Positions 1,929 to 49,511 of a stretch of DNA of 64,000 nt are shown in pieces; position 1 is the stretch's first letter, and each line of letters starts with the position of its first letter. Made by a program: the position numbers and the translations under genes. The notes under the pieces were generated by a model. That model made no database searches. It worked only from the letters and a program-made list of their open reading frames with translations, and had not been told where the DNA came from. This DNA is from an uncultured bacterium (lineage in GTDB: Bacteria; Krumholzibacteriota; Krumholzibacteriia; LZORAL124-64-63), in the NCBI GenBank assembly GCA_963732385.1, contig CAVSZB010000007.1:1344001-1408000 (forward strand), in the 5' to 3' direction.

Positions 1929-3941
1929 TCAGGATACGGCCGGCGCCGGCCGTGAATCCGCGGGGGTCGGAAACCGCCGCAGCAGACAGTCGTGCAGCGC
2001 CTCGGGCGAGTCGAAGTCGGAGGCGCGCAACCTCCACTCCGTCGGTGCGACGAGGAACGGCTCGGTCTGACGTCCACCGAGACCACCGTGGCTGCTGAGC
2101 TGTTCCTCGAAGACACAGACCTGGCCGCCAGGCAGGAGGGCCCCGTTGACGAGGAGATCGCCGGAGAGCGGAGAGGCGAGGATCCGGGCGATTTCGCCGG
2201 CCCAGCGGTCGGGGTCCCCGTAGACGGCGAGCGGATCGCAATCGCCGTGCAGCTCGCCCGTGGCCAGATCGCGGGCGCCGCGGGGACCGATTACGACGCC
2301 GCCGGCGTAGCCGCGGCGGGCGGCGATGAAGGCGACGCCGTCGTGCCGCACCAGCCCTTCCACCAGGCCGGGGTGCTCGGCCTCGACCTCGGACAGCACG
2401 GCCGCCCGATCCCAGCCGGCCAGATAGATGTGCGCGAGGCAGCCCGACACGCAGACCCGCGGACCGGGCGACGGCAGCCCGCTACGGTCCTGGCCGTCGA
2501 ACGACCAGCGGCGCAGCCGGTCGAGCGTGCGGCGGCTGCGCGCGGCGACCGGCCGCCGCTCCTCGGCCTGGCTTGCCGCCATCTCCGCCAGCAGCGCCGC
2601 CACGAAGGTCGGAGTGGAGGCGCCGTCGTCCGCGACGACCGCCTCGCTGCCGACCAGGCCGGCCACCATTTCCTCCAGCGTGCGGCCGTCGAGTCTGGCG
2701 AACGGAACGCTGGCCGACTGCCCGTGATCCGAGAGCAGGACCACATCGTAGGCGATCGGCGCCCCGGTGCGCAGGAGGCGCAGGAGGCGGCGCAGCTTGC
2801 GGTCGAAGGCCGACAGCGAGACGAGCGCCTCGTACGAGTCGGCGCCGCCGTAGTGCGCCACCTCGTCGTAGCCGACGAAGTTCGTGTAGATCACCGGCAC
2901 GCCGCGCATGAGGTCCTGCTTGATCAGGAAGTGGGACGTCTCGCGCAGGAGCGAGTTGGCCACGGCGCGCATGGCGGCCTGCTTCAGGCCGCGGTGCACG
3001 CGCGCCCGGCGCCGGCCGAGCCGTCCGATCAGCGTCCAGCCGAAGGCGGCGCCGAAATCGACCACCGCCGCCAGCAACGCCTTCGTGTACTCGAACGGGC
3101 TGAGCCAGAAGAGCGAAAGATCGGTCAGCTCGGCGCGACGCCGGGCTTCGTCGGGATCCCCCTGGGCGCTCAGGGTGAAGAGTCGCTTCGTCGCTCCGCC
3201 CGACAGGAAGCTGGTGATGCAGGAGCCGCCGGCCAGTAGCGGAACGCCGTCGGCTGCGGCCAGCGCCTCGAGCCGGCGCAGATCGGCGCTGTCGCTGGCG
3301 GCCCGCAGACGGCCCTCCGCGCGATCGTACCAGCGGTAGCCGGGCGTGTGGCGGCGCGATCCGAACAGCAGACCGGCCTGCACGGCGGGGGTGTTCGACG
3401 GGATACCGCAGTGCCAGCGGTGCAGCGTGTGACTGCCGCGCGCCAGCAGCGCGGAGATCGCCGGCACGCGCCCCCGCAACAGCGCGCGACGCAGGCTGCC
3501 GTGCGAGAGCCCGTCGATCTGCAGCAGAAGCAGTCCGCGCCGCACCGCCGGCGAGCGGGGCGGACCGAACCGCCGCCCGAGCCGGTGCAGCATCGATTGG
3601 AAGAACGGGTAGGTTTCGTCAATGCCGAGCCAGCCCACGAGGGCGGAGTTGATCACGCTAAGGATGGCCAACCCCGCGATGGTGTCGAGGAGGCGGTCCA
3701 TGACGAGAGGATGTCCGAGCCGCGCGGCGAGGTACAGCAGACCACCGTTGATGAAGAGGGTCGGCAGCCCCAGCGTCACGATGTTGAGCGGCAGGGTCGC
3801 CAGGACGAGCAGCGGGCGCAGGACGATCATCAGGAGCGCCATCTCCACCGGCAGGATCAGCGCGCTGGCCCACCAGTGCGGCGCGGAATGGTCGAAACGG
3901 AAACCGGGCAACAGGGAGGTGGCGAGCAACAGCGACAGCAC
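1929..3941 (-). CDS. 4-TM phage-holin-like domain fused to an alkaline-phosphatase-superfamily (NPP-type) domain; true start may be upstream (about 4058)
   Basis: Holin-like RPLL..ATLPLNIVTLGL..LFING; AlkP ligands IDGL, PSNTP, DEVAH, SDHG, SHGG. Confidence 0.8.
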   Translation of the reverse strand: MLSLLLATSLLPGFRFDHSAPHWWASALILPVEMALLMIVLRPLLVLATLPLNIVTLGLPTLFINGGLLYLAARLGHPLVMDRLLDTIAGLAILSVINSALVGWLGIDETYPFFQSMLHRLGRRFGPPRSPAVRRGLLLLQIDGLSHGSLRRALLRGRVPAISALLARGSHTLHRWHCGIPSNTPAVQAGLLFGSRRHTPGYRWYDRAEGRLRAASDSADLRRLEALAAADGVPLLAGGSCITSFLSGGATKRLFTLSAQGDPDEARRRAELTDLSLFWLSPFEYTKALLAAVVDFGAAFGWTLIGRLGRRRARVHRGLKQAAMRAVANSLLRETSHFLIKQDLMRGVPVIYTNFVGYDEVAHYGGADSYEALVSLSAFDRKLRRLLRLLRTGAPIAYDVVLLSDHGQSASVPFARLDGRTLEEMVAGLVGSEAVVADDGASTPTFVAALLAEMAASQAEERRPVAARSRRTLDRLRRWSFDGQDRSGLPSPGPRVCVSGCLAHIYLAGWDRAAVLSEVEAEHPGLVEGLVRHDGVAFIAARRGYAGGVVIGPRGARDLATGELHGDCDPLAVYGDPDRWAGEIARILASPLSGDLLVNGALLPGGQVCVFEEQLSSHGGLGGRQTEPFLVAPTEWRLRASDFDSPEALHDCLLRRFPTPADSRPAPAVS

Positions 3942-4065
3942 GCCGATCGCCCAGACGAGGAAATAGCGCAGGAGGATGCCCAGCGCCGTCCTGATACCGG
4001 CCTCCTTCCGCGAACCGTGCGAATCGCGGGCGCGGTCGTGGCGATGGACCGGCGCCAGCCCCCCG

Positions 4066-5562
4066 TCAGTCGGCCGCCGCCGCGCGCCGCAGGCGCGCGA
4101 TCACCCGGGGCGCGCCGATCAGCTCCATCACCGGGAAAATCCGGGCGTTGGCGTTCTGCCCGGTCAGGGCGACGCGGCACGGGTGGAGCAGCGCGCCCGG
4201 CTCCACGCCGAGATGCGCGGCCGTCCCGCGCGCCACCTCCTCGAAGAGTGCCGCGGGCGCGGCGACGACGCCATCGTCCACCGCCGCCAGCGCGTCGGCG
4301 AGTCGGGCAAGCCGCAGCCTGGCGTCGGCGACCGCCAGGTCCGCGGCCACGGCCGCCGCATCGACGGGGTAGTCCTCGGTGAAGAAGAAGGCGATCTGGT
4401 CAGGCACGCGCACCAGGTCGCTGAAGCGGTTGCCCAGAGCGCGCAGGACGGCGTCGAGGTAATGTGACGTGTCGCCGCCGGCCGGCGTGCGCCAGGTCGG
4501 ATCGACGGACCAGCCGCGCTCGGCGAGCCGCGGCAGCACGAGCGCGAGGCGCCGCGCGGGCGACAGCCGCTTGATGTGCTCGCCGTTGATGTAGGCGAGC
4601 TTGTCGTAGTCGAACGCGGCCGGTGCGCTCCCCACCCGCTTGAGCGTGAATTTCTTCACGAGCTGGTCCCGCGCGAGGACCTCCTCGCCGCCCGGTCCGG
4701 GCGACCAGCCGAGCAGCGCGAGGTAGTTCACCATGGCGTCGGGCAGGATGCCCCGGGCGGCGAACTCCTCCACGCTGGTGGCGCCGTGCCGCTTGCTCAG
4801 GCGCTTGCGATCGGGGCCGAGGATCATGGGCAGGTGACCGAATTTGGGCCGCGGCCAGCCGCAGGCATCGTAGAGCAGGAGCTGCGCCGGCGTGTTGCTG
4901 ACGTGGTCGTCGCCCCGCAGCACGTGGCTGATCCCCATCAAGTGGTCGTCCACCACGACCGCGAAGTTGTAGGTCGGAAAATCGTCGGCCTTGACCAGCA
5001 CGCGATCGGTGAGTCCGGCGTTCTGGAACTCGCGTCTGCCGTAGACGATGTCGTTCCAGACCGTCGATCCGTCGTCCGGCGTGCGCAGGCGCCAGCTCGG
5101 GCGGATACCCCGCGCCTCCAGGTCGCTGCGGTCGGCATCGGTGAGGCGGCGGCAGCGGCCGTCGTAGCCGGGCGTCTGACCGGCGGCGAGCGCCGCCTCG
5201 CGCCCCCGCTCGAGTTCTTCAGGATCGCAGTAGCAGGGATAGGCGTGGCCCGCCTCGCGCAGGCGGTTCAATTGCTCGCGGTAAAGGTCGAGCCGCTCCG
5301 ACTGCACATACGGCCCCCGATCCCCGCCGACGCCCGGGCCCTCGTCCCAGTCGAGGCCGAGGAACTCCAGCCCGCGCAGGATGGCGGCATACGACTCCTC
5401 CGTGCTGCGCACCTGGTCGGTGTCTTCGACGCGCAGGATGAACCGGCCCCCCTGGCCGCGGGCGTAGAGCCAGTTGAAGAGCGCCGTGCGCGCTCCGCCG
5501 ACATGCAGGAAGCCGGTCGGGCTCGGCGCGAAGCGGACACGGATCGCGGGCGGGTCGGTCAT
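4066..5562 (-). CDS. gltX: Glutamate--tRNA ligase
   Basis: RFAPSPTGFLHVGG (HIGH), LSKR (KMSKS), CYC...YDGRC, full C-terminal anticodon-binding region; ATG at 5562. Confidence 0.96.
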   Translation of the reverse strand: MTDPPAIRVRFAPSPTGFLHVGGARTALFNWLYARGQGGRFILRVEDTDQVRSTEESYAAILRGLEFLGLDWDEGPGVGGDRGPYVQSERLDLYREQLNRLREAGHAYPCYCDPEELERGREAALAAGQTPGYDGRCRRLTDADRSDLEARGIRPSWRLRTPDDGSTVWNDIVYGRREFQNAGLTDRVLVKADDFPTYNFAVVVDDHLMGISHVLRGDDHVSNTPAQLLLYDACGWPRPKFGHLPMILGPDRKRLSKRHGATSVEEFAARGILPDAMVNYLALLGWSPGPGGEEVLARDQLVKKFTLKRVGSAPAAFDYDKLAYINGEHIKRLSPARRLALVLPRLAERGWSVDPTWRTPAGGDTSHYLDAVLRALGNRFSDLVRVPDQIAFFFTEDYPVDAAAVAADLAVADARLRLARLADALAAVDDGVVAAPAALFEEVARGTAAHLGVEPGALLHPCRVALTGQNANARIFPVMELIGAPRVIARLRRAAAAD

Positions 5563-5587
5563 GGCGACGCCTTTGCCGGAACGCGGG

Positions 5588-6738
5588 TCAGGAGCCATCC
5601 GCGGCGGGGAACAGATGCGGCGAGCGCGGCTGAACGGCGGCGCCGATCGGTTCCGCGCCCGAGACCGGGTCGAGCCGGGCAGCCAGATCCGCGGGCGACA
5701 CGCCGTACACCCGGCTGCAGACGCGCGCCCAGCTGTCGCCGCCCGCCACGCCGGCAAGCGCCTCGCGCAGCCTGGGCAGGCCGCCGTGGTCCTCCACCAG
5801 CCGCCAGGCCATTACGAACGCGGAGTAGCTGGCGCAGCGAAAGCGCTTCTGGTCCTGCGCGCCGTCGGTGTCGGGCGGGCCGGCGAGGATCGTGTCGATC
5901 TCGACCGGCGGGAAGAACACCGGCCCCTCGGGTCGGTAGGGCGCCATGAAATTGGCGAGGTGCGGCCCCATGTCAGCGATGTAGGACGCCAGTCCCTGGC
6001 GCAGCCAGAGCGGCAGGCGGTCTTCCGTGGCGCGATCGAGCATCCAGAGGGTGGTCATTTCGACGGCGACATGCCCGGCGAGTGACCGCGCCAGGAGCGT
6101 CGGCACCGGCTCCACGAAACAGCTGTCTCCGTCGAGCCGGTAGAGACGCCAGGAACCGTAGCCGGTGCGCGCCGTGTAGTTCTCGAGGTTGTCGGGATTG
6201 ACGATCCGCAGCTGACCGTCCGGCGCCAGGTCGAGCAGATCGCGCGCGCGGTGCCGGGCCCAGTCGCACAGCTCGACGAACAGCATCAGATCGCACGGCG
6301 CGTATTGGGGCGAACAGGCAAAAGTGAGCCACGGCAGGGCCAGACGGCCGGGATCCACCGTGAGACCGTCGCGCGGAACCAGTTGCCCGCCGCGACAGAA
6401 ACTGCCAACGCCATAGGGTCGACCGTCCGCCGCGAGCGGTGGCTGCCAGTCGTGCCAGAAGAATGCGTGCATGTGATCGGGGTAGCCCGAGGCCGCCAGC
6501 TGCGCCGCGGTGAAGCGGGGGAAAGGGCCGGCCGGTGTGAGATCGGCCAGGTGGTGGGGATGCGCCGCCGGCGACGGCGTGGCGGCCGCTTCCGGCGGCG
6601 GTGCAGCCGCTTCCGGCGGCGGCGCGCCCCCCCGCCCGTCGCGTGGGCACAGCCCGGCGCGGGGACGTACAGCGCGAGAGCGGCGGCGATCGCTACGACC
6701 GCCAGGGCGGCGGAGCGGACCGGGCGCGCCGCAATCAC
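5588..6738 (-). CDS. Exported hypothetical protein, frameshifted at a G7 tract (6627-6633)
   Basis: GTG at 6738 overlaps the upstream stop and encodes a signal peptide. One extra G joins it to the 5588-6472 ORF. PLWLRQGLA resembles a degenerate peptidase-MA-like P.WL.EGLA motif. Confidence 0.6.
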
Positions 6739-36975: not shown

Positions 36976-39069
36976 TCAGACAAGCTGGGACCGCAGTTCA
37001 TCCACGAGATAGGGGGGGGTCCAGACGCCGGCGGCCCCCAGACGCCGCGCGAGCCGGCGGGCCGGTTCGCCGCTGTTGCCGGTCGCCAGGATGACCGGCC
37101 CCGGCGCCGTTTCCCCGTGTTGCGCCAACAGGGCGAGGAGTCCGTCCAGACAGCGGTCCGGCTCGGCGTTGTCGCAGATGATCGCATCGATGCTTCGGGT
37201 CCGCAGGCACTCGCGCGCCTCCCCCGGTGCGGCACAGACAGTGACGGCGTAGCCGGACTTGACCAGCTTCTCCTCCAGGTCATCAGCGCGGAACCGGCTG
37301 GCCACCAGCAGGAGGATGCTCGCCTCGGGCGACCCGACCGGCACGCCCGTGGCGGCGGGGCTCGGCAAAGCGGGGGCGACGGGGGACCATTCGACCGTCA
37401 GATCCCCGCCGGCCCCGTCGACCGGCTCGACATGACTCAGCCGCAGCGACAGGACCTTCTCGATGTCCAGCAGCGGCAGCACGACCCCGTTCGCCGTTTC
37501 CACGCCGCTCCTGGCGACCGCCTCCCAGCCCACCGGTGTCTCCACGTAGCGGACTACGGCAACGCGCCGCGCCGTGCCCGTGGTGAGCAGCGCCACCCGC
37601 TTCTCGACCAGTCCGACGAGAGCCAGGTGGCCGCCCCCGTCGGCCGTGGAGGTCGGCATCAGCATGTCCACCCAGGACGCCAGGTCAATGGCGAGCAGGC
37701 TCTGGTTCTCGCGGACCAGCGTATCACCGTCAGGCGAGCTGCGACGTTGCCACCCCTGCGCCGACACGACCGCCTCCACGAGGTGCAGCGGCGCCGCCAC
37801 CTCCGCGTCCACCAGAGACAGGACGCACACTTCGGGAGCGCCGGCGAGGTGTAACGGCAGCACGACCTGCAGACAGCCCTCGCCATGCGATCCGAAATGC
37901 GCGTGCACGAGCGCACCGTCCTGCCGCAGCCGCCGCAGCGCGACGCGCAGGCTGGGGGACTCGATCAGGAAGTCCTCCTCGAGCAGGTGGCCAAGCGCCC
38001 GCGCCGCCTCGGCCGGCAGACGACCCGGAGGGCGGCGGAACTCGGCTGTCACCCGCTCGGCTCCCAGGTCCACCAGCAGCAGCCAGCGCGGAGCTCCGGG
38101 GCCGATCGCCTGGCAGAGGTCGGTCGCCATCAGCCCGAGCAGCCGCCCATAGCGGCTCTGCTCCTCCTCCGGGAACAGATCATCCACCCCGGGCGACCCG
38201 GGCGGCGCTCCCTCGACCGTCAGCCCCGGCACGCGCCAGCGCAGCGTCCACGGTTCGCGGCCCTCGCCACAGGCCCCCGGGTCCTCTTTCACGGCCGTCA
38301 GCCCCTCGCGCCACCCCGCTTTGAGCGCCTCCTGGAACAGCGTCCCGCCCGGCAACAGCGGCAGCGCCTCGTGGGGATCCTTGGTCTCCGCCTCGGCCGA
38401 CGCTGCGTCGCGTTCGTAGTCCTCCGTCTCGAACAACGCATCGCCGAGCGAACGTACCTCGCGCCAACGCTGTTGGCGCCGGGTGCGCTCCTCGTCGTTC
38501 CGTGACCCGTCGGTCGGCCGGGGATGAGGCACCTTGGTGACGAGCCGCTCGATGATCGCGAGCATCGATTCCCACGACACGACAGCCTGCGGGTCGTCGA
38601 GTCCCTCGAGACGCAGCTGGGCCGGCTCCGGTTCCGGACGCGGCGGCGCGCCGGACGCCGCCCGCGCACGCGCGGTGGCGTGCTCGCGCGCCGCGGCGGC
38701 GAAGCCCTGGCGCAGGCGCGCCACGCGCTCCGGAGCGACCAGTTCTTCCGGCGTGCGCCCGGCATCCAGGCCCTCGATGAGCACTTCCTCGAAGGCCACG
38801 ATCTCGCGCAACACCGGCTCGTAGGCGGCCAGGGCGCCGTGCGGGTTTTCGGCGATCCAGTTGAGGAGTTCGAGCAGGATGCGCAGCCAGTCGTGCAGCA
38901 CCGTCACGCCGAGCAGTTCGCTGCTGCCGGCGAGCAACCGCGTCGCGATGACCGCCCGGGGCAGCGAGGCGGGGGCCGGACCGTTCCAGCGGCCCTGCAC
39001 CGAAACCTCGCGCAGCCCGGCCAACTGCTCACGCAACTGCAGCGTAAAGAGCTGAATGAGATCATTCAT
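36976..39069 (-). CDS. Degenerate CheA-like protein: Hpt-like - divergent middle - CheW-like - atypical REC
   Basis: Hpt-like helix ATRLLAGSSELLG without the His; CheW-like APLHLVEAVV...LLAIDL...RVALL...GVVLPLLD; REC DAIICD...VILATG...GAAGVWTPP. Confidence 0.65.
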   Translation of the reverse strand: MNDLIQLFTLQLREQLAGLREVSVQGRWNGPAPASLPRAVIATRLLAGSSELLGVTVLHDWLRILLELLNWIAENPHGALAAYEPVLREIVAFEEVLIEGLDAGRTPEELVAPERVARLRQGFAAAAREHATARARAASGAPPRPEPEPAQLRLEGLDDPQAVVSWESMLAIIERLVTKVPHPRPTDGSRNDEERTRRQQRWREVRSLGDALFETEDYERDAASAEAETKDPHEALPLLPGGTLFQEALKAGWREGLTAVKEDPGACGEGREPWTLRWRVPGLTVEGAPPGSPGVDDLFPEEEQSRYGRLLGLMATDLCQAIGPGAPRWLLLVDLGAERVTAEFRRPPGRLPAEAARALGHLLEEDFLIESPSLRVALRRLRQDGALVHAHFGSHGEGCLQVVLPLHLAGAPEVCVLSLVDAEVAAPLHLVEAVVSAQGWQRRSSPDGDTLVRENQSLLAIDLASWVDMLMPTSTADGGGHLALVGLVEKRVALLTTGTARRVAVVRYVETPVGWEAVARSGVETANGVVLPLLDIEKVLSLRLSHVEPVDGAGGDLTVEWSPVAPALPSPAATGVPVGSPEASILLLVASRFRADDLEEKLVKSGYAVTVCAAPGEARECLRTRSIDAIICDNAEPDRCLDGLLALLAQHGETAPGPVILATGNSGEPARRLARRLGAAGVWTPPYLVDELRSQLV

Positions 39070-39120: not shown

Positions 39121-40986
39121 TTACCCGAGGGCGACGGCGCCAAGTTCGTTAAGGTCGTAAATGTGATCGTCCTCCTCCTTCGCCAGCGATGTCGCAGGCG
39201 CCGGTGCCGGTTCCGGCGTCGGAGCATCGAGCGCGACCGCGCCGAATTCCACCAGATCGTAGATCCGGTCCTCCTCCGTGGGCACGGCCGGAGCCTCCGG
39301 CTCAGGCGTCTCGCCAGCTTCGATCCGCGGTTCCTCCGGCGCGAAGATCGAGCCGCTGAGCGGCCGAACCGACGCGGCGGCCGCCGTTGCCGGCGCCTCG
39401 TCGGAAGCGAAGAGGCGGAAGGCCGCGGGCGGTGGTGACGCATCCGGCTCCGGCGACGCCGACGCCGACGCCGACGCCGGGGCCGGCTCCGCAGCCACAG
39501 TCTCCTCCGGGCCGAGAGCCGGGTCGCCGAACGAATCGATCTCGAAACCACCGGAGCCGGCGGCGGGCTCCGGATCGGCGCTCATCTCGCACGGAACGCC
39601 GGTCAGTTCGGACAGAGCCCCCGCGAGCGCCTCGAGACGCGTGCCCTGCTCCGCGAAGGTCTGCACGAGGGCATCGGCATCGGCGCCGACCCGCACCAGT
39701 GCGGTCCTGAGATCTCCGGCCCGCGCGGCGCCACGGCGCCACGCCTCCGGTTCCGGGATGTCGCGCCCGGAGGCCGCGGCAATCTCGTCCATCTGAGCCT
39801 GCGCCCGGGCCAGCGCCGACCCCGTCGTCTCCTGATCGCGCGCCGCATTCTCGAGACGGGTCGCGATGCCCTGGAACTCGGTGACCAGGCTCTTGAGGCT
39901 CTCGGTGAGCGGGAAGAGGGTCTCGCCCCGCTCGCCCAGCCGCGTCACCTCGAGGGCGGTCTGGATCGCCAGACTGCCACCGCGGGCGACCAGGTCCTTG
40001 ATGGCGTGCGCGGTCTGGATCAACTGTCCCGCCTGGGCGCCGGCGGCCGCCGCCGGCAGCGCGTCGCGGACATCGACCAGCGACGGCACCCCGCACCGCT
40101 CGATCTCTTCCAGCGCACGCAGCTTCTCCGCGAAGGCGCCGGCCAGCCGCTGGGTATCGCTCCCGACGCGCTGCACCGCGGCCTGCAGGGCGCCCAATCG
40201 CCCGCCGGCACGGGCCTGCCAGCTGCGCGCCTCGGCAGCGGCGGTCGTGACCTGGCCGCCAGCCTCATGCAACCGCGACTCCAGATCCGCCTGCGCCATG
40301 CGCAGCCGGTCGATCTCCTCGTGCAACAGCGCCGCGCCCGAAGCCGCGCGTCCCACCAGAGGCATCTCGTACACCTCTATCACGGCGGATCGCTCACCAT
40401 CGAGCAGTCCCTTGCCGAGCCGGGTCAGTTCCCCTTCCAGGACCGCGGCCCGGACCAACGCCAACCGCTGCATGCGTTCGCGGGCCCGCACCGCGTCGAG
40501 GAACCGCGACAGATCCCCTTCGGCCCGCAGCGAGGGATCCTGCCACCCGCTTTCACTGTCCAGGTCGAGGGCACCCAGCCGGGCCAGCAGCGCGCGGTGG
40601 CGCTGGTGCTCTTTCTGGTAGCGGGCTGCCAGGGTGCTGATGGCCCAGCCGGCGAACGACGCCAGCGCCAGCGCACAGCCCATGGCGAGACCAAGTCCGG
40701 TCAGGCCGCGCACATCGAGTGGCGTCTTGAAACCGCCGCGCGCCGCCACGAAAGCGGCTGCTGCCGCGAGCACGACGAGCAGGGCGCTCAGCGCGCCCGG
40801 CAACCACGGCGGCTGCAACCCGTCGAACAGCCCCTGGCGGGGAGGCGCCGGCGGTGCGACCGCACGTTCCGAGGTCGTGTCCCACGCTTCCCAGCCCGTG
40901 ACGACCGGCGAGTCCCCGGCAGCTGGCGAGGCCTTACTTACTTCGGCGTCGGCGTCCACGCCGAAATCGTCCTCTCGCTCGCTCAT
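39121..40986 (-). CDS. Divergent methyl-accepting-chemotaxis-like membrane protein
   Basis: 2 TMs, long coiled coil, hairpin-tip-like SLAIQTALEVTRLGERGETLFPLTESLKSL; SD GAAAGGA. Confidence 0.65.
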   Translation of the reverse strand: MSEREDDFGVDADAEVSKASPAAGDSPVVTGWEAWDTTSERAVAPPAPPRQGLFDGLQPPWLPGALSALLVVLAAAAAFVAARGGFKTPLDVRGLTGLGLAMGCALALASFAGWAISTLAARYQKEHQRHRALLARLGALDLDSESGWQDPSLRAEGDLSRFLDAVRARERMQRLALVRAAVLEGELTRLGKGLLDGERSAVIEVYEMPLVGRAASGAALLHEEIDRLRMAQADLESRLHEAGGQVTTAAAEARSWQARAGGRLGALQAAVQRVGSDTQRLAGAFAEKLRALEEIERCGVPSLVDVRDALPAAAAGAQAGQLIQTAHAIKDLVARGGSLAIQTALEVTRLGERGETLFPLTESLKSLVTEFQGIATRLENAARDQETTGSALARAQAQMDEIAAASGRDIPEPEAWRRGAARAGDLRTALVRVGADADALVQTFAEQGTRLEALAGALSELTGVPCEMSADPEPAAGSGGFEIDSFGDPALGPEETVAAEPAPASASASASPEPDASPPPAAFRLFASDEAPATAAAASVRPLSGSIFAPEEPRIEAGETPEPEAPAVPTEEDRIYDLVEFGAVALDAPTPEPAPAPATSLAKEEDDHIYDLNELGAVALG

Positions 40987-41160
40987 TCCGGCTTCCTTTC
41001 GTTGCTCACAGCCAGGACCGCAACGCGCGGCCACGCCAGCCGGACACACGATCCTGGCGCGACCGGGGCATCCCGGCTCTCCCTGCATTTCGACCGGGAA
41101 GCGGGGGACCGTAGCGGATTCTGTCGCGAAAAGAAGACGGGCCAGAGACGGCGGCCGGAC

Positions 41161-42066
41161 TCAGATCTCCCGCAGGAAATCGACGATCTCGGCATGAAGA
41201 CCGGCGGGACCGTGGATCTGGAGGATCCGGTGCCCCCCCTCGGGGTAGAGCCGGAAGCGCGAGGCCTTGTGCCGCGCCTTGCGTTGGACCATTCGCAGGG
41301 AGACGGCCGCAATGCGCTCATCGTCCTGGCACTGCGCCGCGTAGACCGGCATGTCGAGCCGGGAGAGCAGCGGCCGCGCCTTTTCCATCGCCTCGAGTAT
41401 TTCGAGGCTCCAGCCGTACTTGCGCCGCACCCACTGCAGGCGGTGCACATTCAACCGCAACAACAGGCGCACGAAGAGCGGGAGGCACGGTTCGAGGGCC
41501 GGCGCGAGCAGCACGACGCCCTGCGGTTTCTCCTCGCCTGCGAGATGGATGGCGATCGCCGAGCCGAAGCCCAGACCGACGACGTGCACACGCGGGCCCA
41601 CCTCGCGCAGGAACCTCAGCCGCAGCCGGGCCTCCTGCAGGCAGGCGCGCCAGAGAACATCACCCAGGCCAGGCGCAAGGTTGGCGCGGGTCGGCAAGAG
41701 AGGAGCGTAAACGCTGAAACCGGCGTCGTGGATCGCCTCGGCCAGCGGACGCATCTCGGCCGGCGTGGAGGTGGCGCCATGGAGGAGCAGGACCGCGTCC
41801 GCTCCCTCCGCTCCGCCGAGCATGATCGAACGGTCGACCGGCGGAATGCCCCGCCGTTCCTCCAGTTCCGCGCGCAGTTTCTGGTGGGCGCGCAGCAGAC
41901 TGGCGCGGGCGCGCGGCGTGTCGGGACGCTGCCCGCGGGTGGTTTCCAACTCCCAGGCGGTCAAAGCGTGCCGGATCGTCTCCGGCCGGACTGCCCGCTC
42001 GCGCTCCTTCTCATCCGCCGGAAGAGGGCCGCCGGACCGTGCCGTGCTGTCGCTTTCGCTCGCCAA
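41161..42066 (-). CDS. Carboxylesterase/monoacylglycerol-lipase-like alpha/beta fold protein lacking the catalytic Ser
   Basis: VLLLHGATSTP.EMR.LA...GFSVYAP.LP, VVGLGFGS, DDERI, GGH. Confidence 0.8.
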   Translation of the reverse strand: MASESDSTARSGGPLPADEKERERAVRPETIRHALTAWELETTRGQRPDTPRARASLLRAHQKLRAELEERRGIPPVDRSIMLGGAEGADAVLLLHGATSTPAEMRPLAEAIHDAGFSVYAPLLPTRANLAPGLGDVLWRACLQEARLRLRFLREVGPRVHVVGLGFGSAIAIHLAGEEKPQGVVLLAPALEPCLPLFVRLLLRLNVHRLQWVRRKYGWSLEILEAMEKARPLLSRLDMPVYAAQCQDDERIAAVSLRMVQRKARHKASRFRLYPEGGHRILQIHGPAGLHAEIVDFLREI

Positions 42067-42439
42067 ATCCTCATCCCCGTCCGCGGCGCGGGCCGCTCAG
42101 CCGATGTGCCCGGGCCGGTCGCAGATGACGTCCGGCCACGCTCCCGGTTCCCGACGAACCGACACCGCGTGATCCTGGTGCCTGCCGCTCAGGACGAAGG
42201 CCAGACCCCTGCCGGGCCGCTTCGCGGCCGGCAGGTCCGCCCCGGGATCATCTGAAATGAATAGGTCCTCCGGCGCGGTGACGCCAACCCTTTCCGGCGC
42301 TTCCCGGCAGATCAGCCCCTCCGATTTGCCGCTCGTGACCGCCACGCAGCCGGCGGCAGCCTCCCGGGCGGCTCTGCCGGCCGACCGGGCCGGGGGTCGC
42401 CCCGACACCCCCTCGACCTCAGGCGGGCTGGCGCGGGGC

Positions 42440-43615
42440 TCACGCAGAGGCGGCAGGCGGACCCTCCTTCCCACCGGATGCGGCGAGCGCGGCCAGCTCT
42501 GCATCGTAGCGAGGCGCCAGGCGCTCCCAGCAGAATGCGTCGCACGCGGGGGGCAGGCCGCAGACGTGCCCGCAGCGCCCCGCCAGAACGTCGCGCAAAA
42601 GCGCTGTCAGCCCCGCCTCGCCGTCGTAGAGATGCCGGCCCCGGCACTGGCGACCGTAGAGAGAGGGGTAGACCTGCTCACGCGGCAGCACGGCGAAGGC
42701 GCCGGCATGCACCGCTTCGGCGACCGCGATGCCAAAGTACTCCTGTGCCGCGCAACTGACGACCACATCCGCCCTCGCGAGCCAGGAATCGTAGCCCTGG
42801 CCCGCCGGCGCCTCCCCCCAGGCCACCACGCGCGAGCCGAGGCATTCGCGCAGCGGAGCGAATGCCTCCTCGCGGCCGCGCGGATCGCCGAGCAGGGCGA
42901 CCCGGAACGGCACCCCCTCGGCCGCAAGGCACCGCAGCGCGCCGACCAGCCACTCCGGACGCTTGTCGAACTCCCAGCGGTGGTTCCAGAGGATGAGCGG
43001 AGCTTCGCCATCGCGGGGCCAGGTCGGTCCGGCATCATCCGCGCACGGCCCGCCCAGATACGGCGCACCACCGTCGTCGGGACGACAGGCGCGGGCGAGG
43101 CCAACCGGCAAAACCGCACTTTTGGCCTCGATCCGGGGCCGCACGCCACGCGGGATCGCTTCGGGCATCCGACCGAGATAGGCGGGAATTCCATCCAGAA
43201 AAAGACCCCTGTGGTACTCGGAATTAAAGATCACGCGGTCGGCGGCCAGCGCCGACACGATGTTGGTGGCCCCGAAATGGAAGTCGAATTCCTCTTCCGG
43301 CGACAGGGGGTAGGTCAACTGGTTTTCGTGCATATAGAGTAGAAGGGGCTGGCGATCGTAGGGGGGATCGAGCATCCCGCGGAAGTCGGCCACGTTCAGG
43401 AAATCGGTGGCCAGGATCAGGTCGCACGGCGGCCGCGCAGCGTTGATCGCGTCGGCGAACCAGGGGGCGGCGCCTCGCAGGCGCCATTTCCAGAAGCGCG
43501 CCGGCAGCGTCCAGCCGTGGACCCGGTGGCCGGAACGGGCCGTTAATCCTTCCCGGAAGGCGCGATGCGAACCCCCGTCATACGGTTCTACGAACAGGAT
43601 ATCCAATGGTGACAA
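42440..43615 (-). CDS. DUF3524/GTDC1 (QTMAN-like) GT-B glycosyltransferase
   Basis: EPYDGGSH, LPARFWKWRLRG, YMHENQLTYP, NIVSALAAD...FNS.Y, ILWNHRWEFDK.P, EYFGIAVAEA, YP.LY: the motif series I recognise for this family. Confidence 0.88.
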   Translation of the reverse strand: MSPLDILFVEPYDGGSHRAFREGLTARSGHRVHGWTLPARFWKWRLRGAAPWFADAINAARPPCDLILATDFLNVADFRGMLDPPYDRQPLLLYMHENQLTYPLSPEEEFDFHFGATNIVSALAADRVIFNSEYHRGLFLDGIPAYLGRMPEAIPRGVRPRIEAKSAVLPVGLARACRPDDGGAPYLGGPCADDAGPTWPRDGEAPLILWNHRWEFDKRPEWLVGALRCLAAEGVPFRVALLGDPRGREEAFAPLRECLGSRVVAWGEAPAGQGYDSWLARADVVVSCAAQEYFGIAVAEAVHAGAFAVLPREQVYPSLYGRQCRGRHLYDGEAGLTALLRDVLAGRCGHVCGLPPACDAFCWERLAPRYDAELAALAASGGKEGPPAASA

Positions 43616-43676
43616 GGGGTTGTCCTCCCTGAACCCGTTCCGTAACGGCTGCGGACGCGGCGCGCAGTCCGCCGCG

Positions 43677-43706
43677 TTGATGCGGCCGGCCTCCTCATTA
43701 TATATT
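43677..43706 (+). promoter_or_regulatory. Possible sigma70 promoter for queF in the divergent GT/queF spacer
   Basis: TTGATG followed 16-18 bp later by TATATA/TATATT in an AT-rich patch. Confidence 0.4.
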
Positions 43707-43797
43707 AGCAGGGCGCGGCCCCGGTATCACCTCCACGGGCAGATCGTGAGCGCAGGTTGACGGTCTGTCTGTGGCCCGCCTGAAAGGACCCCTTCCC

Positions 43798-44178
43798 ATG
43801 CCATCGAGCCCGGCGCGTGAGATCGAGACCTTCCCCAATCCCAATCCGGAACGGGACTACGAAATCGCGTTCGACTGTCCGGAGTTCACCTGTCTCTGCC
43901 CGCTGACCGGACAGCCCGACTTCGCCCGCTTCCAGATCACCTATGTGCCGGACGGGACCTGCGTGGAACTGAAGTCGCTCAAGCTCTATCTCTGGTCGTA
44001 CCGGAACGAAGGAGCCTTCCACGAGGCGGTCACCAACCGGATCGCCGACGACCTGATCGCGGCCGTGCGGCCGCGGCGTCTCGCGGTCGCCGGAGACTGG
44101 TTCGTGCGCGGGGGAATCGCCACGCGGGTGCTCGTCACTTACGGACAGACCGACACCGGCGCTCAGGAGGCCCCTTGA
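43798..44178 (+). CDS. queF: NADPH-dependent preQ0 reductase (unimodular QueF)
   Basis: [24 protein letters not shown] (QueF motif), FHE, RGGI; SD GAAAGGA. Confidence 0.96.
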
Positions 44179-44247
44179 GCGTGACTCCCGGGGTCGACGC
44201 TTCGCCGCGCGACGTCACCGGCGCCGACCTCATCATCGACGGCAGCA

Positions 44248-45264
44248 TCACGACCTGAGCTCATCCGGCGGCACGACGAACGACAGCGCGCGTCCGCAGC
44301 CCGGACAGTGCGCGCCGTCGCGCAGCAGGACGCGCGTGGCGAACCCCTCGCGCGCGACACACAACTCACTGCAGTGCGGACAGACCGTGTCCGCGCCGCC
44401 GCGCAGCCGGACATTCCCCACGTAGACGTAATGCAGCTTCCGACGCGCGAACGCGGCGGCGCGGGCGAGCGTGGCCGACGGCGTGGGCGGCGCGCTGAAC
44501 TTCCAGTCGGGCCGGTAGGCGGAAAAATGCAGCGGCACGTCGCGCCCCACCTCGGCCACGAAATCGACCAGGCGCCCGATCTGCGCCGCCTCGTCGTTAC
44601 AGCCCGGGATGACAAGATTCGTCACCTCGAGATGCACGCCCAACTCCCGGCAGGTCCGGATCGTGGCCAGCACCGGCGCCAGGCTCGCCCCGCAGATCTG
44701 CCGGTAGAAGCCGTCGTCCATCGCCTTGAGGTCGATGTTCGCGGCGTCGACCAGCGGCAGCAGCTGGCGCAGTGGTTCCGGGTTGAGGAAACCGTTCGAT
44801 ACGATGACGTTGCGCAGTCCGGCCGCGCGGGCCAGCCGCGCCGTATCCCGTACGAATTCGTACCAGACGAGCGGCTCGCTGTAGGTGAACGCCACGCCGA
44901 TCGAATGGCGCGCCAGCGCGAGCGCGACCACCTCCTCAGGCGCAGAGACGGCGGCGGCCGCAGCGCGTCCCTGGCTGAGCGTCCAGTTCTGGCAGAACCG
45001 GCAGTGGAGGTTGCACCCCTGCGCGGCGATCGACAGGATCGAAGCCCCGGGGTGGAAATGGTAGAGCGGCTTCTTCTCGATCGGATCGACGGCGGTCGAG
45101 ACGATGCGGCCGTACTCCTTCGCGATCATGCGCCCACCGGCATTGGTGCGCGACCCGCAGGGGCCGTCGCGCCCGTCCGGCAGCCGGCAGCCGTGCGGAC
45201 AGAGCTCGCACTGGACCGCGCCGTCGGGCAGGGCGCTCCACCAGGCCGCCACGTGCGTCACCAT
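44248..45264 (-). CDS. amrS: AmmeMemoRadiSam system radical SAM enzyme
   Basis: CELCPHGC, DPIEKKPLYHFHPG, GCNLHCRFCQNW, AFTYSEP, NIDLK, PLHFS.Y.P, YVYVGN, two C-terminal CxxC. Confidence 0.93.
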   Translation of the reverse strand: MVTHVAAWWSALPDGAVQCELCPHGCRLPDGRDGPCGSRTNAGGRMIAKEYGRIVSTAVDPIEKKPLYHFHPGASILSIAAQGCNLHCRFCQNWTLSQGRAAAAAVSAPEEVVALALARHSIGVAFTYSEPLVWYEFVRDTARLARAAGLRNVIVSNGFLNPEPLRQLLPLVDAANIDLKAMDDGFYRQICGASLAPVLATIRTCRELGVHLEVTNLVIPGCNDEAAQIGRLVDFVAEVGRDVPLHFSAYRPDWKFSAPPTPSATLARAAAFARRKLHYVYVGNVRLRGGADTVCPHCSELCVAREGFATRVLLRDGAHCPGCGRALSFVVPPDELRS

Positions 45265-46352
45265 GGCGCCTCCGGCAACCGCCCGCCGTTGGCAACGACC
45301 GTGGCGGCGTTGCGCCGCAGGCCGTCGGGATGGGCGCGCCAGAGCGGCGACCGGCAAAAGCGCCGGCGGAACTCCTCCGCGTCGATTTCGAGCAGGTCGG
45401 CCAGGCTCGCCTGGGCATGCGCCGGATCGAGCCCGTACTCCGGACGGACCGCCCCGCCGAAACGCGCCGCCCGACGGTTCCAGGGACAGACCGCCTGGCA
45501 GATGTCGCAGCCAAACAGCCGTCCCCCCTGGCGGGCCGCCTCGCCCACCGGCAGACGGCCGTGCCATTCGATCGTCCAGGTGGAGATGCAGCGGTTGGCG
45601 TCGATCACGAACGGGATGTCGAGCGCTCCGGTGGGACAGGCGTCCTGACATAGCCGGCAGGAACCGCAGCGCGAGGCCGGTCCCGGCCCGGCCGTGCGGG
45701 ACGCCGAAACGGAGGCGGTTCGCGGCGTCGCGCCCCAGAGCGGGGCCGCCGCCGGCGCTCCCGCTGCCGGCAACCCGTCCACCGCCAGTCCGACTGCGGC
45801 CACGCCGAGGAACAGCCCCGATCCAAGCCGCTCATGGATCAGGCAGCTGTTGCGCCCGAAGAAACCGAGCCCGGCGAGCCAGGCGTACTCCCGCTCCAGA
45901 TAGGGTCCGGTATCGACCGCGGCGTGCGCAGGGAACGGGCCGAGCGCCCGACGCAGGTCATCGACCACCCCCTTCACATCGGAGAGCAGGAGGTCATGGT
46001 AATCGCGCCCGCGCGCGTAGCGGGCCACACCGTCGGTCCAGGGACGACCGGGCGCGGCGCCCTCCCACGGCGAGCGATCGTCGGGCGACCACCCGGCCAC
46101 ATAACGCTGCGCGAAGACGAGCAGCGCGCGCGCCCAGGGGCGCTGCACGGTCGGATCAACGCGCGCGTCCGGATCGCGGGCGAGCCAGGCGAGACCGGCG
46201 TGCCGGCCGTCCGCCAGCCAGGCGTGAAAGGTGTCGGCATGCGGCAGCGGACAGGGCAGCGCCACCGCACCGGCCAACGCGATCCCGCGCGGCGGGCAGA
46301 ACTCGCCCAGCAACCGGGCCAGGCGCTCCGACGTGACGCGCGGGTCCGTCAT
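45258..46352 (-). CDS. queG: tRNA epoxyqueuosine(34) reductase (cobalamin-dependent)
   Basis: VARYARGRDYH, VDTGP.LER..A..AGLG..G.N, CGSCRLCQDACPTGA, DANRCIS..TIE, FGCDICQAVCPWN. Confidence 0.94.
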   Translation of the reverse strand: MTDPRVTSERLARLLGEFCPPRGIALAGAVALPCPLPHADTFHAWLADGRHAGLAWLARDPDARVDPTVQRPWARALLVFAQRYVAGWSPDDRSPWEGAAPGRPWTDGVARYARGRDYHDLLLSDVKGVVDDLRRALGPFPAHAAVDTGPYLEREYAWLAGLGFFGRNSCLIHERLGSGLFLGVAAVGLAVDGLPAAGAPAAAPLWGATPRTASVSASRTAGPGPASRCGSCRLCQDACPTGALDIPFVIDANRCISTWTIEWHGRLPVGEAARQGGRLFGCDICQAVCPWNRRAARFGGAVRPEYGLDPAHAQASLADLLEIDAEEFRRRFCRSPLWRAHPDGLRRNAATVVANGGRLPEAPW

Positions 46353-46362
46353 GCCATCCACC

Positions 46363-47328
46363 TCAGGAACGCGCCGGCGGGACAAGCCGCGCCACCGCGT
46401 CGTCGTATCCGGCGAGCAGACGCGCCACGACTGCGGCCACGGTCGGCACGTCGTCGATCAATCCGGCCACCTGGCCGATCTCGAGCTCGCCCTCCTCCAG
46501 ATCCCCCTCGAGCATGCCGCGGCGCGCGCGCCCCTCGCCCAGCAACTCCGTCAGCGTCTCCCGCGACGCGCCGGCCGCCTCGAGCCGCATGATCTCGTCA
46601 CGGAAGCGGTTGCGCAACAGCCGCACCGGCACGAGCGGCTTGAGACAGAGCTGCGTGTCGGCCGGACCGGCCGCCACCACCGCCCGCTTCCAGTCCGGAT
46701 GCCCCGACGACTCCTCCGTGATCGCGAATCGCGACCCCACCTGCACCCCCTCCGCCCCGAGCGCCAGCGCCGCCGCCAGTTGCGCCCCGGTGGCGATCCC
46801 CCCCGCCGCGATGACAGGTATCTTCACGGCAGCGACGCACTGCGGCACGAGCACCAGCGTTGTCAGTTCCTCGCGCCCGTTGTGCCCCCCCGCCTCGAAC
46901 CCCTCGCACACCACCGCATCGCATCCCGCCTCCTCGCACTTGCGCGCCAGATCGGGATGCGCCACCACGTGCGCGCTGATGCAGCCCTCGCTCTTGAGCC
47001 GCCCCACGATCCGCTTCGGAGACCCGGCCGACGTGACGAAGATGCGCACCCCCTCCGTCAGCGCGACCTCGAGACACGCGGCGGCGTGAGGGTAGAACAG
47101 CGGCAGGTTCACGCCGAACGGGCGGTCGGTGAGCGCGCGCGTGGCGCGGATCTGCTCGTGCAGGAGATCGGGCCGCAGGGAACCGGCGCCGAGCAGCCCG
47201 AGACAGCCGGCCTCGGCCGCAGCGCCGGCGAGTCGCGCGCCGGAGTTATAGACCATGCCGGCCTGGACGATCGGATGGGCGATGCCGAACAGCTCGCAGA
47301 CGCGGTTGCGGGGCCAACGGGAGGTCAT
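46363..47328 (-). CDS. FabK / nitronate-monooxygenase-family flavoenzyme
   Basis: PIVQAGM, TDRPFGVN, EGFEAGGHNG, PVIAAGGI, GVQVGSRF, GQVAGLI. Confidence 0.9.
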   Translation of the reverse strand: MTSRWPRNRVCELFGIAHPIVQAGMVYNSGARLAGAAAEAGCLGLLGAGSLRPDLLHEQIRATRALTDRPFGVNLPLFYPHAAACLEVALTEGVRIFVTSAGSPKRIVGRLKSEGCISAHVVAHPDLARKCEEAGCDAVVCEGFEAGGHNGREELTTLVLVPQCVAAVKIPVIAAGGIATGAQLAAALALGAEGVQVGSRFAITEESSGHPDWKRAVVAAGPADTQLCLKPLVPVRLLRNRFRDEIMRLEAAGASRETLTELLGEGRARRGMLEGDLEEGELEIGQVAGLIDDVPTVAAVVARLLAGYDDAVARLVPPARS

Positions 47329-47560: not shown

Positions 47561-49228
47561 TCAGGCCTCGTCAGCTCGCCGCAGGAGCAGGAAGGTGACG
47601 TCGTCGTTGAGCGGCACCTCGCCCAGGAACGCGCGCAGGTCGCTTACGATCGCCTCGGCGACCGCCTCGATCGGCTGGGCGCGCGCCTGGCACAACGCGG
47701 TGATCAGGCGTTCTTCATCGTAGAACTCCTCGCCCAGCGTCGCCTCCGGAATGCCGTCGGTGTGGATGCAGAGCAGGGCGCCCGGCGGGAGTTCGACGTC
47801 GGCGCTCCTGTAGACGGCGCCCGGGATGAGTCCGAGCGGGAGACCGGTCGACGAAAGGCGGCGCGCCGCGGTTGCGTCGTGGAGCAGGATCGGCGGGTTG
47901 TGCCCGGCGTTGACGTAGGTCAGCCGGTGAGCACGCGGGTCGAGCACGCCGATGAACAGGGTGACGAAGTGCAGGTCGTCGGACGCGTGCAGCAGTTGGC
48001 GGTGCACGCGCTCGACGACGGTTTCGAGCGCGCCTTTCTCGGCGTAGAGCACACGCAGCGCGGCCAACGTGTTGGACATCAGCAGCGCGGCGCCCATCCC
48101 CTTGCCGGTCACGTCGCCCACGACCACCACGACGCGTCCGTCTTCGAGCACCGCCGTGTCGTGCAGGTCGCCTCCCACCTCGTAGCACGGGATCTGGCGC
48201 GCCAGGATGTCGTAACCCGGCACTTCGGGCCGCGTGGTCGGCAGCAGGTGGCGCTGCACCTGCGCCGCGGCCGCGGCCTCGCGCGACATCCGATCCTTCT
48301 CGGCCTTCAGCTCGAGCAGCCGAACGTTGGCGATCTTCACCGCGATCAGGTTGGCCAGGAACGAGAAGAGACGCAGCTTTTCGGCGTCGTAACGCGCCAG
48401 CGGGTCATCGCTGTCGGCGTAGAGCAGGCCGATCGCCTGTTCGCTGTCGACCAGAGGAGCGACCATCGCCGAGCGCAACCGCGAAGCCACGATGCTCTCG
48501 CGACCGCTGAATCGCGCGTCAGACGGCGCGTCGTTGAGAACCATCGCCTCCCTGCCCCCGAGCACGGTATCGAGAAGCGTTCGGCTGAGGATGAGATTGG
48601 ACGTGTCCACAGCCTGCGCCGGACGCGACGCGAAAACCGTGAAGTCCCTGCCATCCTCCCGCGAAAGCAGGAGCAGGTAGCGCCGCGCCGGCACCAGCTG
48701 TTCGACCAGGCCAAGCAATTGGTCGCAGGTCCCGTTCAGGGGGCCCGGCAGGACGAGAAACTGGCCGACCTTCTCCAGGGCGCTCATCAGCAGACGATCG
48801 CCCTCGGGCAGCGAGGCGGGCGACACGTTCACCTGGTCGAGGCTGACCCGCGAGGCGGCGATCACCGAGAGTTCCGAGCCCGGACCGGCCGGACCGGCGA
48901 GCGAGTCGGCGAAGAGAGTCCGGCCCAGGGTCGCCTCGCCGCCTTCTGACACCACCATCATCAGGACCGAGCCAAGGCTGAGGCGGTCCCCGCGTACGAG
49001 CGACACCGGATCGGTCACGAGAGCGTCGTTCAACCACGTGCCGTTCTTGCTGCCGAGGTCCTGCACGGCGACGCGGTGCTCCTCCACCGCGATCTCGGCG
49101 TGCTCCCGCGACACGGACCGGTCGTCGAGCACGACATCGTTGACCGGTGCCCGTCCGAGCCGGTGCCGGCCCGGTCGCAGCGGCACCCGGATCTCCCGGC
49201 CCGCGAGCGAGCCTCTCAATTCGAGCAA
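47561..49228 (-). CDS. FHA - GAF - SpoIIE/PP2C phosphatase
   Basis: FHA (LGR...VSREHA...DLGSKNGT), GAF (SAMVAPL...GLLYAD), PP2C (GGD, DVTGKG, AGHNPP, TDG, DDVT); TTG start after AGGAGG. Confidence 0.92.
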   Translation of the reverse strand: MLELRGSLAGREIRVPLRPGRHRLGRAPVNDVVLDDRSVSREHAEIAVEEHRVAVQDLGSKNGTWLNDALVTDPVSLVRGDRLSLGSVLMMVVSEGGEATLGRTLFADSLAGPAGPGSELSVIAASRVSLDQVNVSPASLPEGDRLLMSALEKVGQFLVLPGPLNGTCDQLLGLVEQLVPARRYLLLLSREDGRDFTVFASRPAQAVDTSNLILSRTLLDTVLGGREAMVLNDAPSDARFSGRESIVASRLRSAMVAPLVDSEQAIGLLYADSDDPLARYDAEKLRLFSFLANLIAVKIANVRLLELKAEKDRMSREAAAAAQVQRHLLPTTRPEVPGYDILARQIPCYEVGGDLHDTAVLEDGRVVVVVGDVTGKGMGAALLMSNTLAALRVLYAEKGALETVVERVHRQLLHASDDLHFVTLFIGVLDPRAHRLTYVNAGHNPPILLHDATAARRLSSTGLPLGLIPGAVYRSADVELPPGALLCIHTDGIPEATLGEEFYDEERLITALCQARAQPIEAVAEAIVSDLRAFLGEVPLNDDVTFLLLRRADEA

Positions 49229-49511
49229 GGTCCCTCCTGGTCGGACGGCGACGGAGCGGTCACGGGGGGAGCGGACAGGCGGCGCAACCCCTGAGCGCAG
49301 GCCTGATCCCACCACGCTACGGCCGACCCGTCAAACCGCAACTGAATTAGTCGTGGATCTGCTCTTCGCGGCAGGACAGCCCGCGTCGCCTGCCCTGGCC
49401 AGTTCGCGGGACGCGGCCAGATCGCACAAGCGGTGAGATGACGTGACCTGATTGAAAACTCGCTTGCAGTCGGCTGCACATCAGGAATCAAGCCGGTCTG
49501 ACGAGGGCCGG

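Follow-up and report, generated by a model that had tools for sequence, protein, structure and literature searches.

The stretch of DNA considered here (the window; 64,000 nucleotides, positions 1,344,001 to 1,408,000 of contig CAVSZB010000007.1, assembly GCA_963732385.1) comes from an uncultured bacterium and encodes, next to the queuosine biosynthesis gene queF, a glycosyltransferase (GT) that is a genuine, full-length and intact member of the QTMAN/GTDC1 family, to which the tRNA-queuosine alpha-mannosyltransferase of animals belongs. Judging from how well its acceptor lobe is conserved and from the RNA- and deazaguanine-related contexts found here and there among its relatives, the protein is predicted, with about even chances, to glycosylate queuosine (Q) at position 34 of tRNA. 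The gene neighbourhood gives no support to a queuosine function, and the location of the GT gene beside queF plays no role in the proposed mechanism. A sequence-only reading of the same DNA had proposed a queuosine-glycosylation locus formed by the GT, queF and queG; of this interpretation the family membership and the presence of the pathway genes stood, the locus did not. The window is GC-rich (0.64-0.75), the host genome is 95.8% complete and carries the GT gene in a single copy, and the assignment to the phylum Krumholzibacteriota follows the names that the sources give to the closest proteins.

Residues 6-173 of the GT match PF12038 (QTMAN_N, the former DUF3524) over profile positions 2-168 of 168 (E 2.3e-57, 193.9 bits). 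The C-terminal half remains below the Pfam gathering scores of Glyco_trans_1_4 (25.9 versus 27) and Glycos_transf_1 (20.8 versus 26.4), and the sole NCBIfam match of the protein is a weak one to HpsP. The motifs GGSH at position 14, WKWR at 42, HENQ at 96, NHRWE at 211 and E292-x7-E300 are present; the basic pair R213/K218 sits in NHRWExDK, which, together with E-x7-E, we take to be the donor-binding motif known from GT4 enzymes. Structural modeling with AlphaFold2 (AF2; 53 homologues) resulted in a confident GT-B fold (pLDDT 89.3, pTM 0.90) in which the interdomain linker, residues 182-191, is the only poor stretch. The description of the protein as a full-length GT-B enzyme with DUF3524 motifs was borne out by the profile match and the fold alike. 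The closest relative, at 89% identity, has already been named by NCBI after the QTMAN domain. Among solved structures, the nearest folds identified by Foldseek were those of retaining GT4, GT5 and GT20 enzymes (GlgM, MshA, BshA, PimA, SPS and OtsA; E down to 4e-14), and SenB and the tetrahydrobiopterin glucosyltransferase were also among them. These matches fit the alpha-mannoside that QTMAN makes from GDP-mannose, and we infer a retaining (alpha) linkage. In the PDB, a search with the GT sequence alone gave no relevant match; a profile search reached C-lobes of GT4 enzymes only and returned neither a relative of the N-lobe nor a QTMAN structure.

Animal QTMANs were recruited by a search that started from a family member rich in low-complexity sequence, P0301, and the recruited animal proteins are named tRNA-queuosine alpha-mannosyltransferase or GTDC1 by NCBI/UniRef. 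BLASTP aligned residues 4-320 of the window protein with the QTMAN of Salmo salar (P0330) at 31% identity (E 4e-51). When 12 bacterial and 11 eukaryotic family members are aligned, 23 columns distributed over both lobes are invariant, 14 of them located in the N-lobe (E10, S16, H17, W42, W44, Y94, H96, E97, Q99, Y102, P103, D111, D126 and N131) and the remainder at P151, E215, D217, K218, G243, G267, G295, E300 and P311; in this alignment, the animal proteins differ chiefly by extra sequence inserted between the two domains, in the linker. Signature residues of the acceptor lobe and of the donor lobe are common to the window protein and the named animal QTMANs. In GT-B enzymes, the acceptor site usually resides in the N-lobe. 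Since this acceptor-side lobe defines the family and has been preserved in the animal enzyme as well, the acceptor would be tRNA carrying Q34, and the fact that bacteria and animals share a conserved N-lobe speaks most strongly for a common acceptor. The GT would accordingly be expected to transfer a hexose from a nucleoside diphosphate (NDP)-sugar to the cyclopentenediol of Q34. Extended to the family as a whole, the occurrence of sugar-modified queuosine in bacteria is a plausible hypothesis, for which we see the chances as evenly balanced.

To determine what the genomic context contributes, neighbours within 5 kb of the GT were clustered across loci, and the partners proved to be lineage-specific. 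The resulting evidence is mixed: several independent hints point toward RNA or 7-deazaguanine, and the phosphatase and GT4 partners described below do not. In spirochaetes, an RNA 5-methylcytosine (m5C) methyltransferase of the RsmB/F type (NOL1/NOP2/sun) follows 0-47 bp downstream of the GT gene in 5 loci. This methyltransferase (loci L058, L063, L064, L066 and L089; L064:11085-11894) consists of 269 amino acids (aa) that comprise the catalytic domain only, and it scores below all NCBIfam equivalog cut-offs. In P0277, a metagenomic protein of 555 aa, the GT is fused to a domain at residues 423-545 that resembles the tRNA methyltransferase TrmO and reaches 75 bits against TIGR00104, below the cut-off of 93, and the crustacean QTMANs P0356, P0361, P0362 and P0367 carry RRM-type RNA-binding domains. 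Other long forms include a LysM fusion (P0288) and several Amphi-Trp fusions; a cluster look-up for ten long family members yielded no informative names. The hints toward 7-deazaguanine stem from a queC gene 2.4 kb upstream of the GT in one Desulfobulbia locus and from a viral contig (L119:170-4057) that encodes, in a row, FolE, a GATase-QueC fusion, a GFO/IDH-type oxidoreductase and a GT of 359 aa (2978-4057) with the C-lobe motifs of the family (NHRWEFDKNP), which aligns to family columns 166-320 with an hhalign probability of 98.8 (E 1e-16). Such a cluster would be consistent with phage DNA in which 7-deazaguanine carries a sugar. A tblastn search against 50,697 GenBank phage records gave no match, and the scan of viral contigs yielded this one locus. 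Tentatively, and with a chance somewhat short of even, it might be speculated that bacteria of many phyla glycosylate Q34 by an ancestral enzyme of the animal type, and that phages borrowed its donor lobe for the modification of 7-deazaguanine in DNA.

A number of observations weigh against Q34 as the acceptor, beginning with the literature searched, in which no biochemical or nucleoside evidence on bacterial members was found, and with the viral GT, whose N-lobe neither aligns to the family nor matches Pfam, so that only the donor lobe is common to both. The most conserved partner within the phylum is a HAD-IIA phosphatase: among Krumholzibacteria-type loci, a HAD-IIA hydrolase gene follows the GT gene 0-33 bp downstream in 9, an alpha/beta hydrolase gene comes next in 11, and in P0122 the phosphatase is fused to the GT. 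Pairings of this kind are typically encountered in pathways that make glycoside phosphates and do not mark tRNA modification. As the main alternative, it is thus conceivable, albeit unlikely, that the family acts on another acceptor in bacteria, namely a small or phosphorylated molecule such as a free 7-deazaguanine nucleoside or nucleotide or the precursor of a compatible solute, with the HAD phosphatase removing the phosphate in a second step and with the activity on tRNA Q34 being an innovation of the eukaryotic clade. The HAD_2 gene that abuts the GT gene in 3 spirochaete loci would fit such a pathway, as would the nearest solved folds, most of which belong to enzymes with small acceptors (MshA, BshA, GlgM, SenB, SPS, OtsA and the tetrahydrobiopterin glucosyltransferase). 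Nevertheless, HAD genes adjoin the GT in essentially a single phylum, and the HAD partners are of two different types (IIA versus IA). Classical two-step pathways of the SPS/SPP type use HAD type IIB. In the window itself, only a remnant of the HAD gene accompanies the GT gene, which is intact. Furthermore, conservation between the bacterial and the animal proteins is highest in the acceptor-side lobe, with its 14 invariant residues, and RNA-modification neighbours and the TrmO-like fusion are found elsewhere in the family.

The phylogeny can be read in a similar direction. In an unrooted FastTree phylogeny of 82 rows, 12 named eukaryotes, 4 rows rich in low-complexity sequence and 6 unnamed rows form one clade with a support of 100 on a branch of 0.61; the window protein is placed outside this clade and deep among the bacterial rows, where it pairs with P0121. 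As the characterised enzymes form a clade of their own, a change of acceptor might have occurred on the eukaryotic branch, which is what a small acceptor in bacteria would imply. A bacterial origin of the animal gene is neither shown nor excluded by the unrooted tree.

A further possibility, which we consider very improbable, is that the GT is a generic GT4 enzyme that serves to build the cell envelope or exopolysaccharides; the automatic name given by JGI ('glycosyltransferase involved in cell wall biosynthesis') points that way. The C-lobe is indeed GT4-like, HpsP is the sole, weak NCBIfam match, one protein carries the LysM domain mentioned above, and in 5 to 7 loci of Desulfobacterales the genes downstream of the GT encode a classical GT4 and a class I methyltransferase, which likewise does not favour Q34. 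However, no conserved polysaccharide cluster surrounds the GT, the second GT4 being restricted to the Desulfobacterales loci, and no genes of glycan synthesis adjoin it in the window, where its neighbours are queF, the HAD remnant and the alpha/beta hydrolase. The protein is, moreover, kept as a single copy at 33-45% identity across many phyla, and its invariant, family-specific N-lobe is common to the cytosolic tRNA enzyme of animals. A clustering with generic GT4 cell-wall enzymes, which would have spoken against the sequence-only reading, was not seen.

That reading had also drawn on the linkage to queuosine genes, i.e. the divergent spacer of about 180 bp between the GT gene and queF and the queG-amrS pair convergent on queF. 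Both features are real: the spacer measures 182 bp to the ATG or 155 bp to the GTG start codon of queF, and the convergent arrangement was confirmed by gene calls and NCBIfam matches. Direct adjacency of queF and GT gene, in turn, occurs only in the window and in the same-genus genome G096, the assembly of which is ridden with frameshifts. In a second genome of the genus, G097, whose GT is 88% identical, an S8 subtilase gene of about 3 kb separates the two, and the order reads NMO-queG-amrS, queF on the opposite strand, subtilase, GT, an intact HAD-IIA hydrolase and alpha/beta hydrolase; G144, a genome of the same family, has the same gene order, subtilase included. Because G097 and G144 keep the subtilase between queF and GT, the adjacency in the window is, to judge from these relatives, the product of a recent deletion of the subtilase gene within the genus. 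The subtilase of the relatives (loci L032-L038, L120 and L122; L036:6588-9746) comprises about 1050 aa and ends in a FlgD_ig-like domain. Dozens of matches to this C-terminal domain occur in the host genome, suggesting a large family of secreted proteins that may share a sorting or adhesion tag.

Beyond the genus, neither queF, queG nor amrS is found within 1.5 kb of the GT gene in any of 30 loci of the phylum. A looser synteny exists: in 7 of the 8 Krumholzibacteria-type loci with an upstream flank of at least 7.8 kb (out of 11 from the species collection), queF-amrS-queG is positioned 3.4-7 kb upstream of the GT, and for family f1 (90 genomes), a by-eye count of coordinates from incomplete lists places GT and queG 2-20 kb apart on one contig in at least 45. 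This synteny is limited to one family of the phylum; in other families the genes are at least 1 Mb apart (G019, G200 and G201) or reside on separate contigs. As for other phyla, queF, queG, tgt, queA and queD are absent from all 69 loci of Desulfobacterota, Geomonas, Spirochaetota, Chloroflexota, Planctomycetota, Bacteroidota, KSB1 and TA06 within the flanks covered, which extend to at most 10 kb, many records being shorter. A queC gene 2.4 kb upstream of the GT (Desulfobulbia) was found in one of these loci and an AmrS-like match, in one case weak, in three. Insensitivity is an unlikely cause of the zero count, because detection across phyla worked for queC (39% identity) and amrS (40% identity). 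Linkage to que genes is thus not kept across independent lineages, and the expectation that DUF3524 genes would neighbour que or tgt genes across phyla failed, the single queC aside.

These data also bear on the possibility that GT, queF, amrS and queG constitute a functional queuosine-glycosylation locus in which GT and queF are co-regulated from the spacer. The adjacency, the spacer, the synteny within family f1 and a single promoter-like site in the spacer that faces queF (sigma-70-like, 43677-43706, plus strand; 0.2 expected by chance) could be taken in its favour. Yet, with the subtilase intervening in both relatives, the genes dispersed in the other families of the phylum, the zero counts inside and outside the phylum, and neither a preQ1 riboswitch nor any other Rfam family in the spacer, such a locus is largely refuted by the comparative data, and we give it hardly any credence.

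For amrS, the position between queF and queG is maintained throughout this family of Krumholzibacteriota, its start overlapping the queG stop. Geomonas paludis has a homologue as well (L069:11804-12799), about 0.7 kb downstream of its QTMAN-like GT gene, and on a contig of a metagenome-assembled genome of Geomonas sp. the distance is about 1.1 kb in the same direction (L095:5743-5967). AMMECR1 genes are not near amrS; in the host genome they are found at C7:931k and C8:102k.

If Q34 is the acceptor, the host has to make queuosine. The tgt, queA, queC, queD and queE genes, described as missing from the window, were located elsewhere in the host genome: tgt and queA side by side, queC and queD, and, directly upstream of queC, a QueE-like gene of 221 bits against a cut-off of 300. 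Judged by gene content alone, the substrate queuosine should thus be available. Of the 38 genomes from other phyla in which the GT is present, 36 encode QueA, and the two misses are assemblies with GT contigs of 4.5 and 8.6 kb for which completeness is not given. The requirement for queuosine is therefore not contradicted, yet queuosine is too common to count as support. GluQRS, which attaches glutamate to the same nucleoside, is not found above cut-off in the host genome; the best match to it, at positions 4066-5757 of the window, is gltX (483.7 bits). In the 38 genomes of other phyla, GluQRS occurs above cut-off together with the GT in 3, both Geomonas among them. Mutual exclusion of GT and GluQRS was accordingly rejected, and the two do not behave as alternatives for one site, which would be easier to understand if the GT had another acceptor.

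The family is large, with 772 clusters at 50% identity that reach E 1e-30 or better, and of 600 species-genome stretches inspected, 595 code for a relative. Actinomycetota are among the common hosts according to the Atlas. Within the phylum, the GT is present in 146 of 208 genomes (99 of the 125 of high quality), QueA in 200 (all 125 of high quality) and QueG in 179 of 208 (E 1e-15). Genera g69 and g43 have a strong QueG and no GT; conversely, in family f6 the GT occurs in 17 of 43 genomes, where the QueG model gives weak matches only. No phyletic coupling between GT and que genes is visible, and these tests carry no information on Q34.

The features of the locus are compiled below. The GT gene starts with TTG, preceded by GGGAGG 8 nt upstream. 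For queF (175.9 bits against TIGR03139, cut-off 86.9), the ATG is the more likely start than the alternative GTG. The amrS gene scores 326.7 bits against TIGR04337 (cut-off 220); the queG-like gene, at 194.1 bits, stays just below the TIGR00276 cut-off of 200, and its product has the Pfam domains QueG_DUF1730 and Fer4_16. The queG stop is overlapped by the ATG of amrS (ATGGTGA), 69 bp separate the stops of the convergent amrS and queF, and the NMO-queG-amrS string is kept in relatives.

Features of the locus in the window (positions are those of the 64,000-nucleotide stretch)
Feature	Position	Strand	Basis or remark
QTMAN-family GT, 391 aa	42440-43615	-	PF12038 match, AF2 GT-B fold
Divergent spacer GT/queF	43616-43797		155 bp to GTG 43771, 182 bp to ATG 43798
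queF, preQ1 synthase type II	43798-44178	+	TIGR03139 QueF-II
amrS, AmmeMemoRadiSam-system radical SAM enzyme	44248-45264	-	TIGR04337
queG-like epoxyqueuosine reductase	45258-46352	-	TIGR00276; alternative TTG start 46385
NMO/FabK-like FMN oxidoreductase	46363-47328	-	First gene of NMO-queG-amrS string
HAD-IIA hydrolase remnant	42103-42342	-	Residues 185-264 of 272, 49% identity
alpha/beta hydrolase	41161-42066	-	Conserved third gene of GT-HAD-hydrolase string in phylum

The HAD-IIA remnant corresponds to the last 80 codons of the gene that follows the GT in relatives, where intact copies are present; a second HAD-IIA copy was not found in the host genome, and the GT and alpha/beta hydrolase genes that flank the remnant are both intact. 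An Rfam scan of the whole window identified one tRNA alone, a tRNA-Met, which is not a GUN tRNA. Just past the NMO gene, a multi-domain signalling protein is encoded, an FHA-GAF-SpoIIE (PP2C-type) phosphatase of 584 aa (47561-49315, minus strand). On the other side of the locus, two open reading frames (ORFs) rich in Ala, Glu and Arg (36976-39069 and 39121-41088, both on the minus strand; 697 and 655 aa) are putative genes in GC-rich DNA, the 655-aa ORF having no Pfam match and the 697-aa ORF no NCBIfam match.

To our knowledge, the only hypermodified queuosine that bacteria have been credited with is glutamyl-Q. A function for bacterial DUF3524 proteins was not described by any paper in the literature searched, from which the study of Zhao et al. 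2023 was absent. Sugar-modified queuosines occur in vertebrate tRNAs, according to the abstract of PMC10690763. If several hundred bacterial species did glycosylate Q34, this would be a new bacterial tRNA modification and would provide a widespread 'DUF' family with a function; the glycosylated queuosine reported so far from animal tRNA would be an old bacterial invention, and it would become possible to test whether the animal enzyme originated in bacteria. As the adjacency to queF is accidental, the window itself adds little to this beyond another family member. The practical value of the comparison is that it names cultured carriers of the gene, i.e. Geomonas paludis Red736, Geomonas diazotrophica Red69, Desulfatibacillum alkenivorans DSM 16219 and Desulfosarcina alkanivorans PL12.

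Several known systems share single traits with the window protein. With the small-acceptor retaining GT4 enzymes (MshA, BshA, PimA and GlgM) it has in common the GT-B fold and the donor-lobe motifs, but the sequence match is restricted to the C-lobe and the N-lobe of the window GT is family-specific. The GT of the viral 7-deazaguanine cluster similarly possesses the C-lobe motifs of the family and is encoded among FolE and GATase-QueC genes, but differs in the unaligned N-lobe and in its presumed acceptor, DNA. GluQRS (YadB), which decorates Q34 of tRNA-Asp with glutamate in bacteria, would have the same cyclopentenediol as its target and likewise represents an optional hypermodification of patchy occurrence; its fold and chemistry are, however, unrelated, as it is a truncated GluRS that uses ATP and glutamate, and it differs in distribution, being below cut-off in the host genome and co-occurring with the GT in few others.

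The closest known counterpart is the animal QTMAN (GTDC1), which was reportedly identified by Zhao et al. in 2023 (Cell). According to two sources, this enzyme uses GDP-mannose as the donor and attaches the sugar in alpha linkage to the allylic hydroxyl that Q bears in tRNA-Asp (bioRxiv 10.64898/2026.06.28.735034; PMC11755703). Like the window GT, it combines QTMAN_N with a GT4-type C-lobe, at 29-31% full-length identity, and both proteins display the motifs GGSH, WxWR, YxHENQxxYP, (W)xHRWExDK and E-x7-E. In contrast to the animal enzyme, the window GT lacks the long low-complexity insert in the linker, falls outside the eukaryotic clade and has an activity that is predicted only. The substrate base of the animal enzyme, queuosine, is one for which the organism of the window has the pathway genes; while animals salvage queuine, the bacterium encodes the genes of the de novo pathway.

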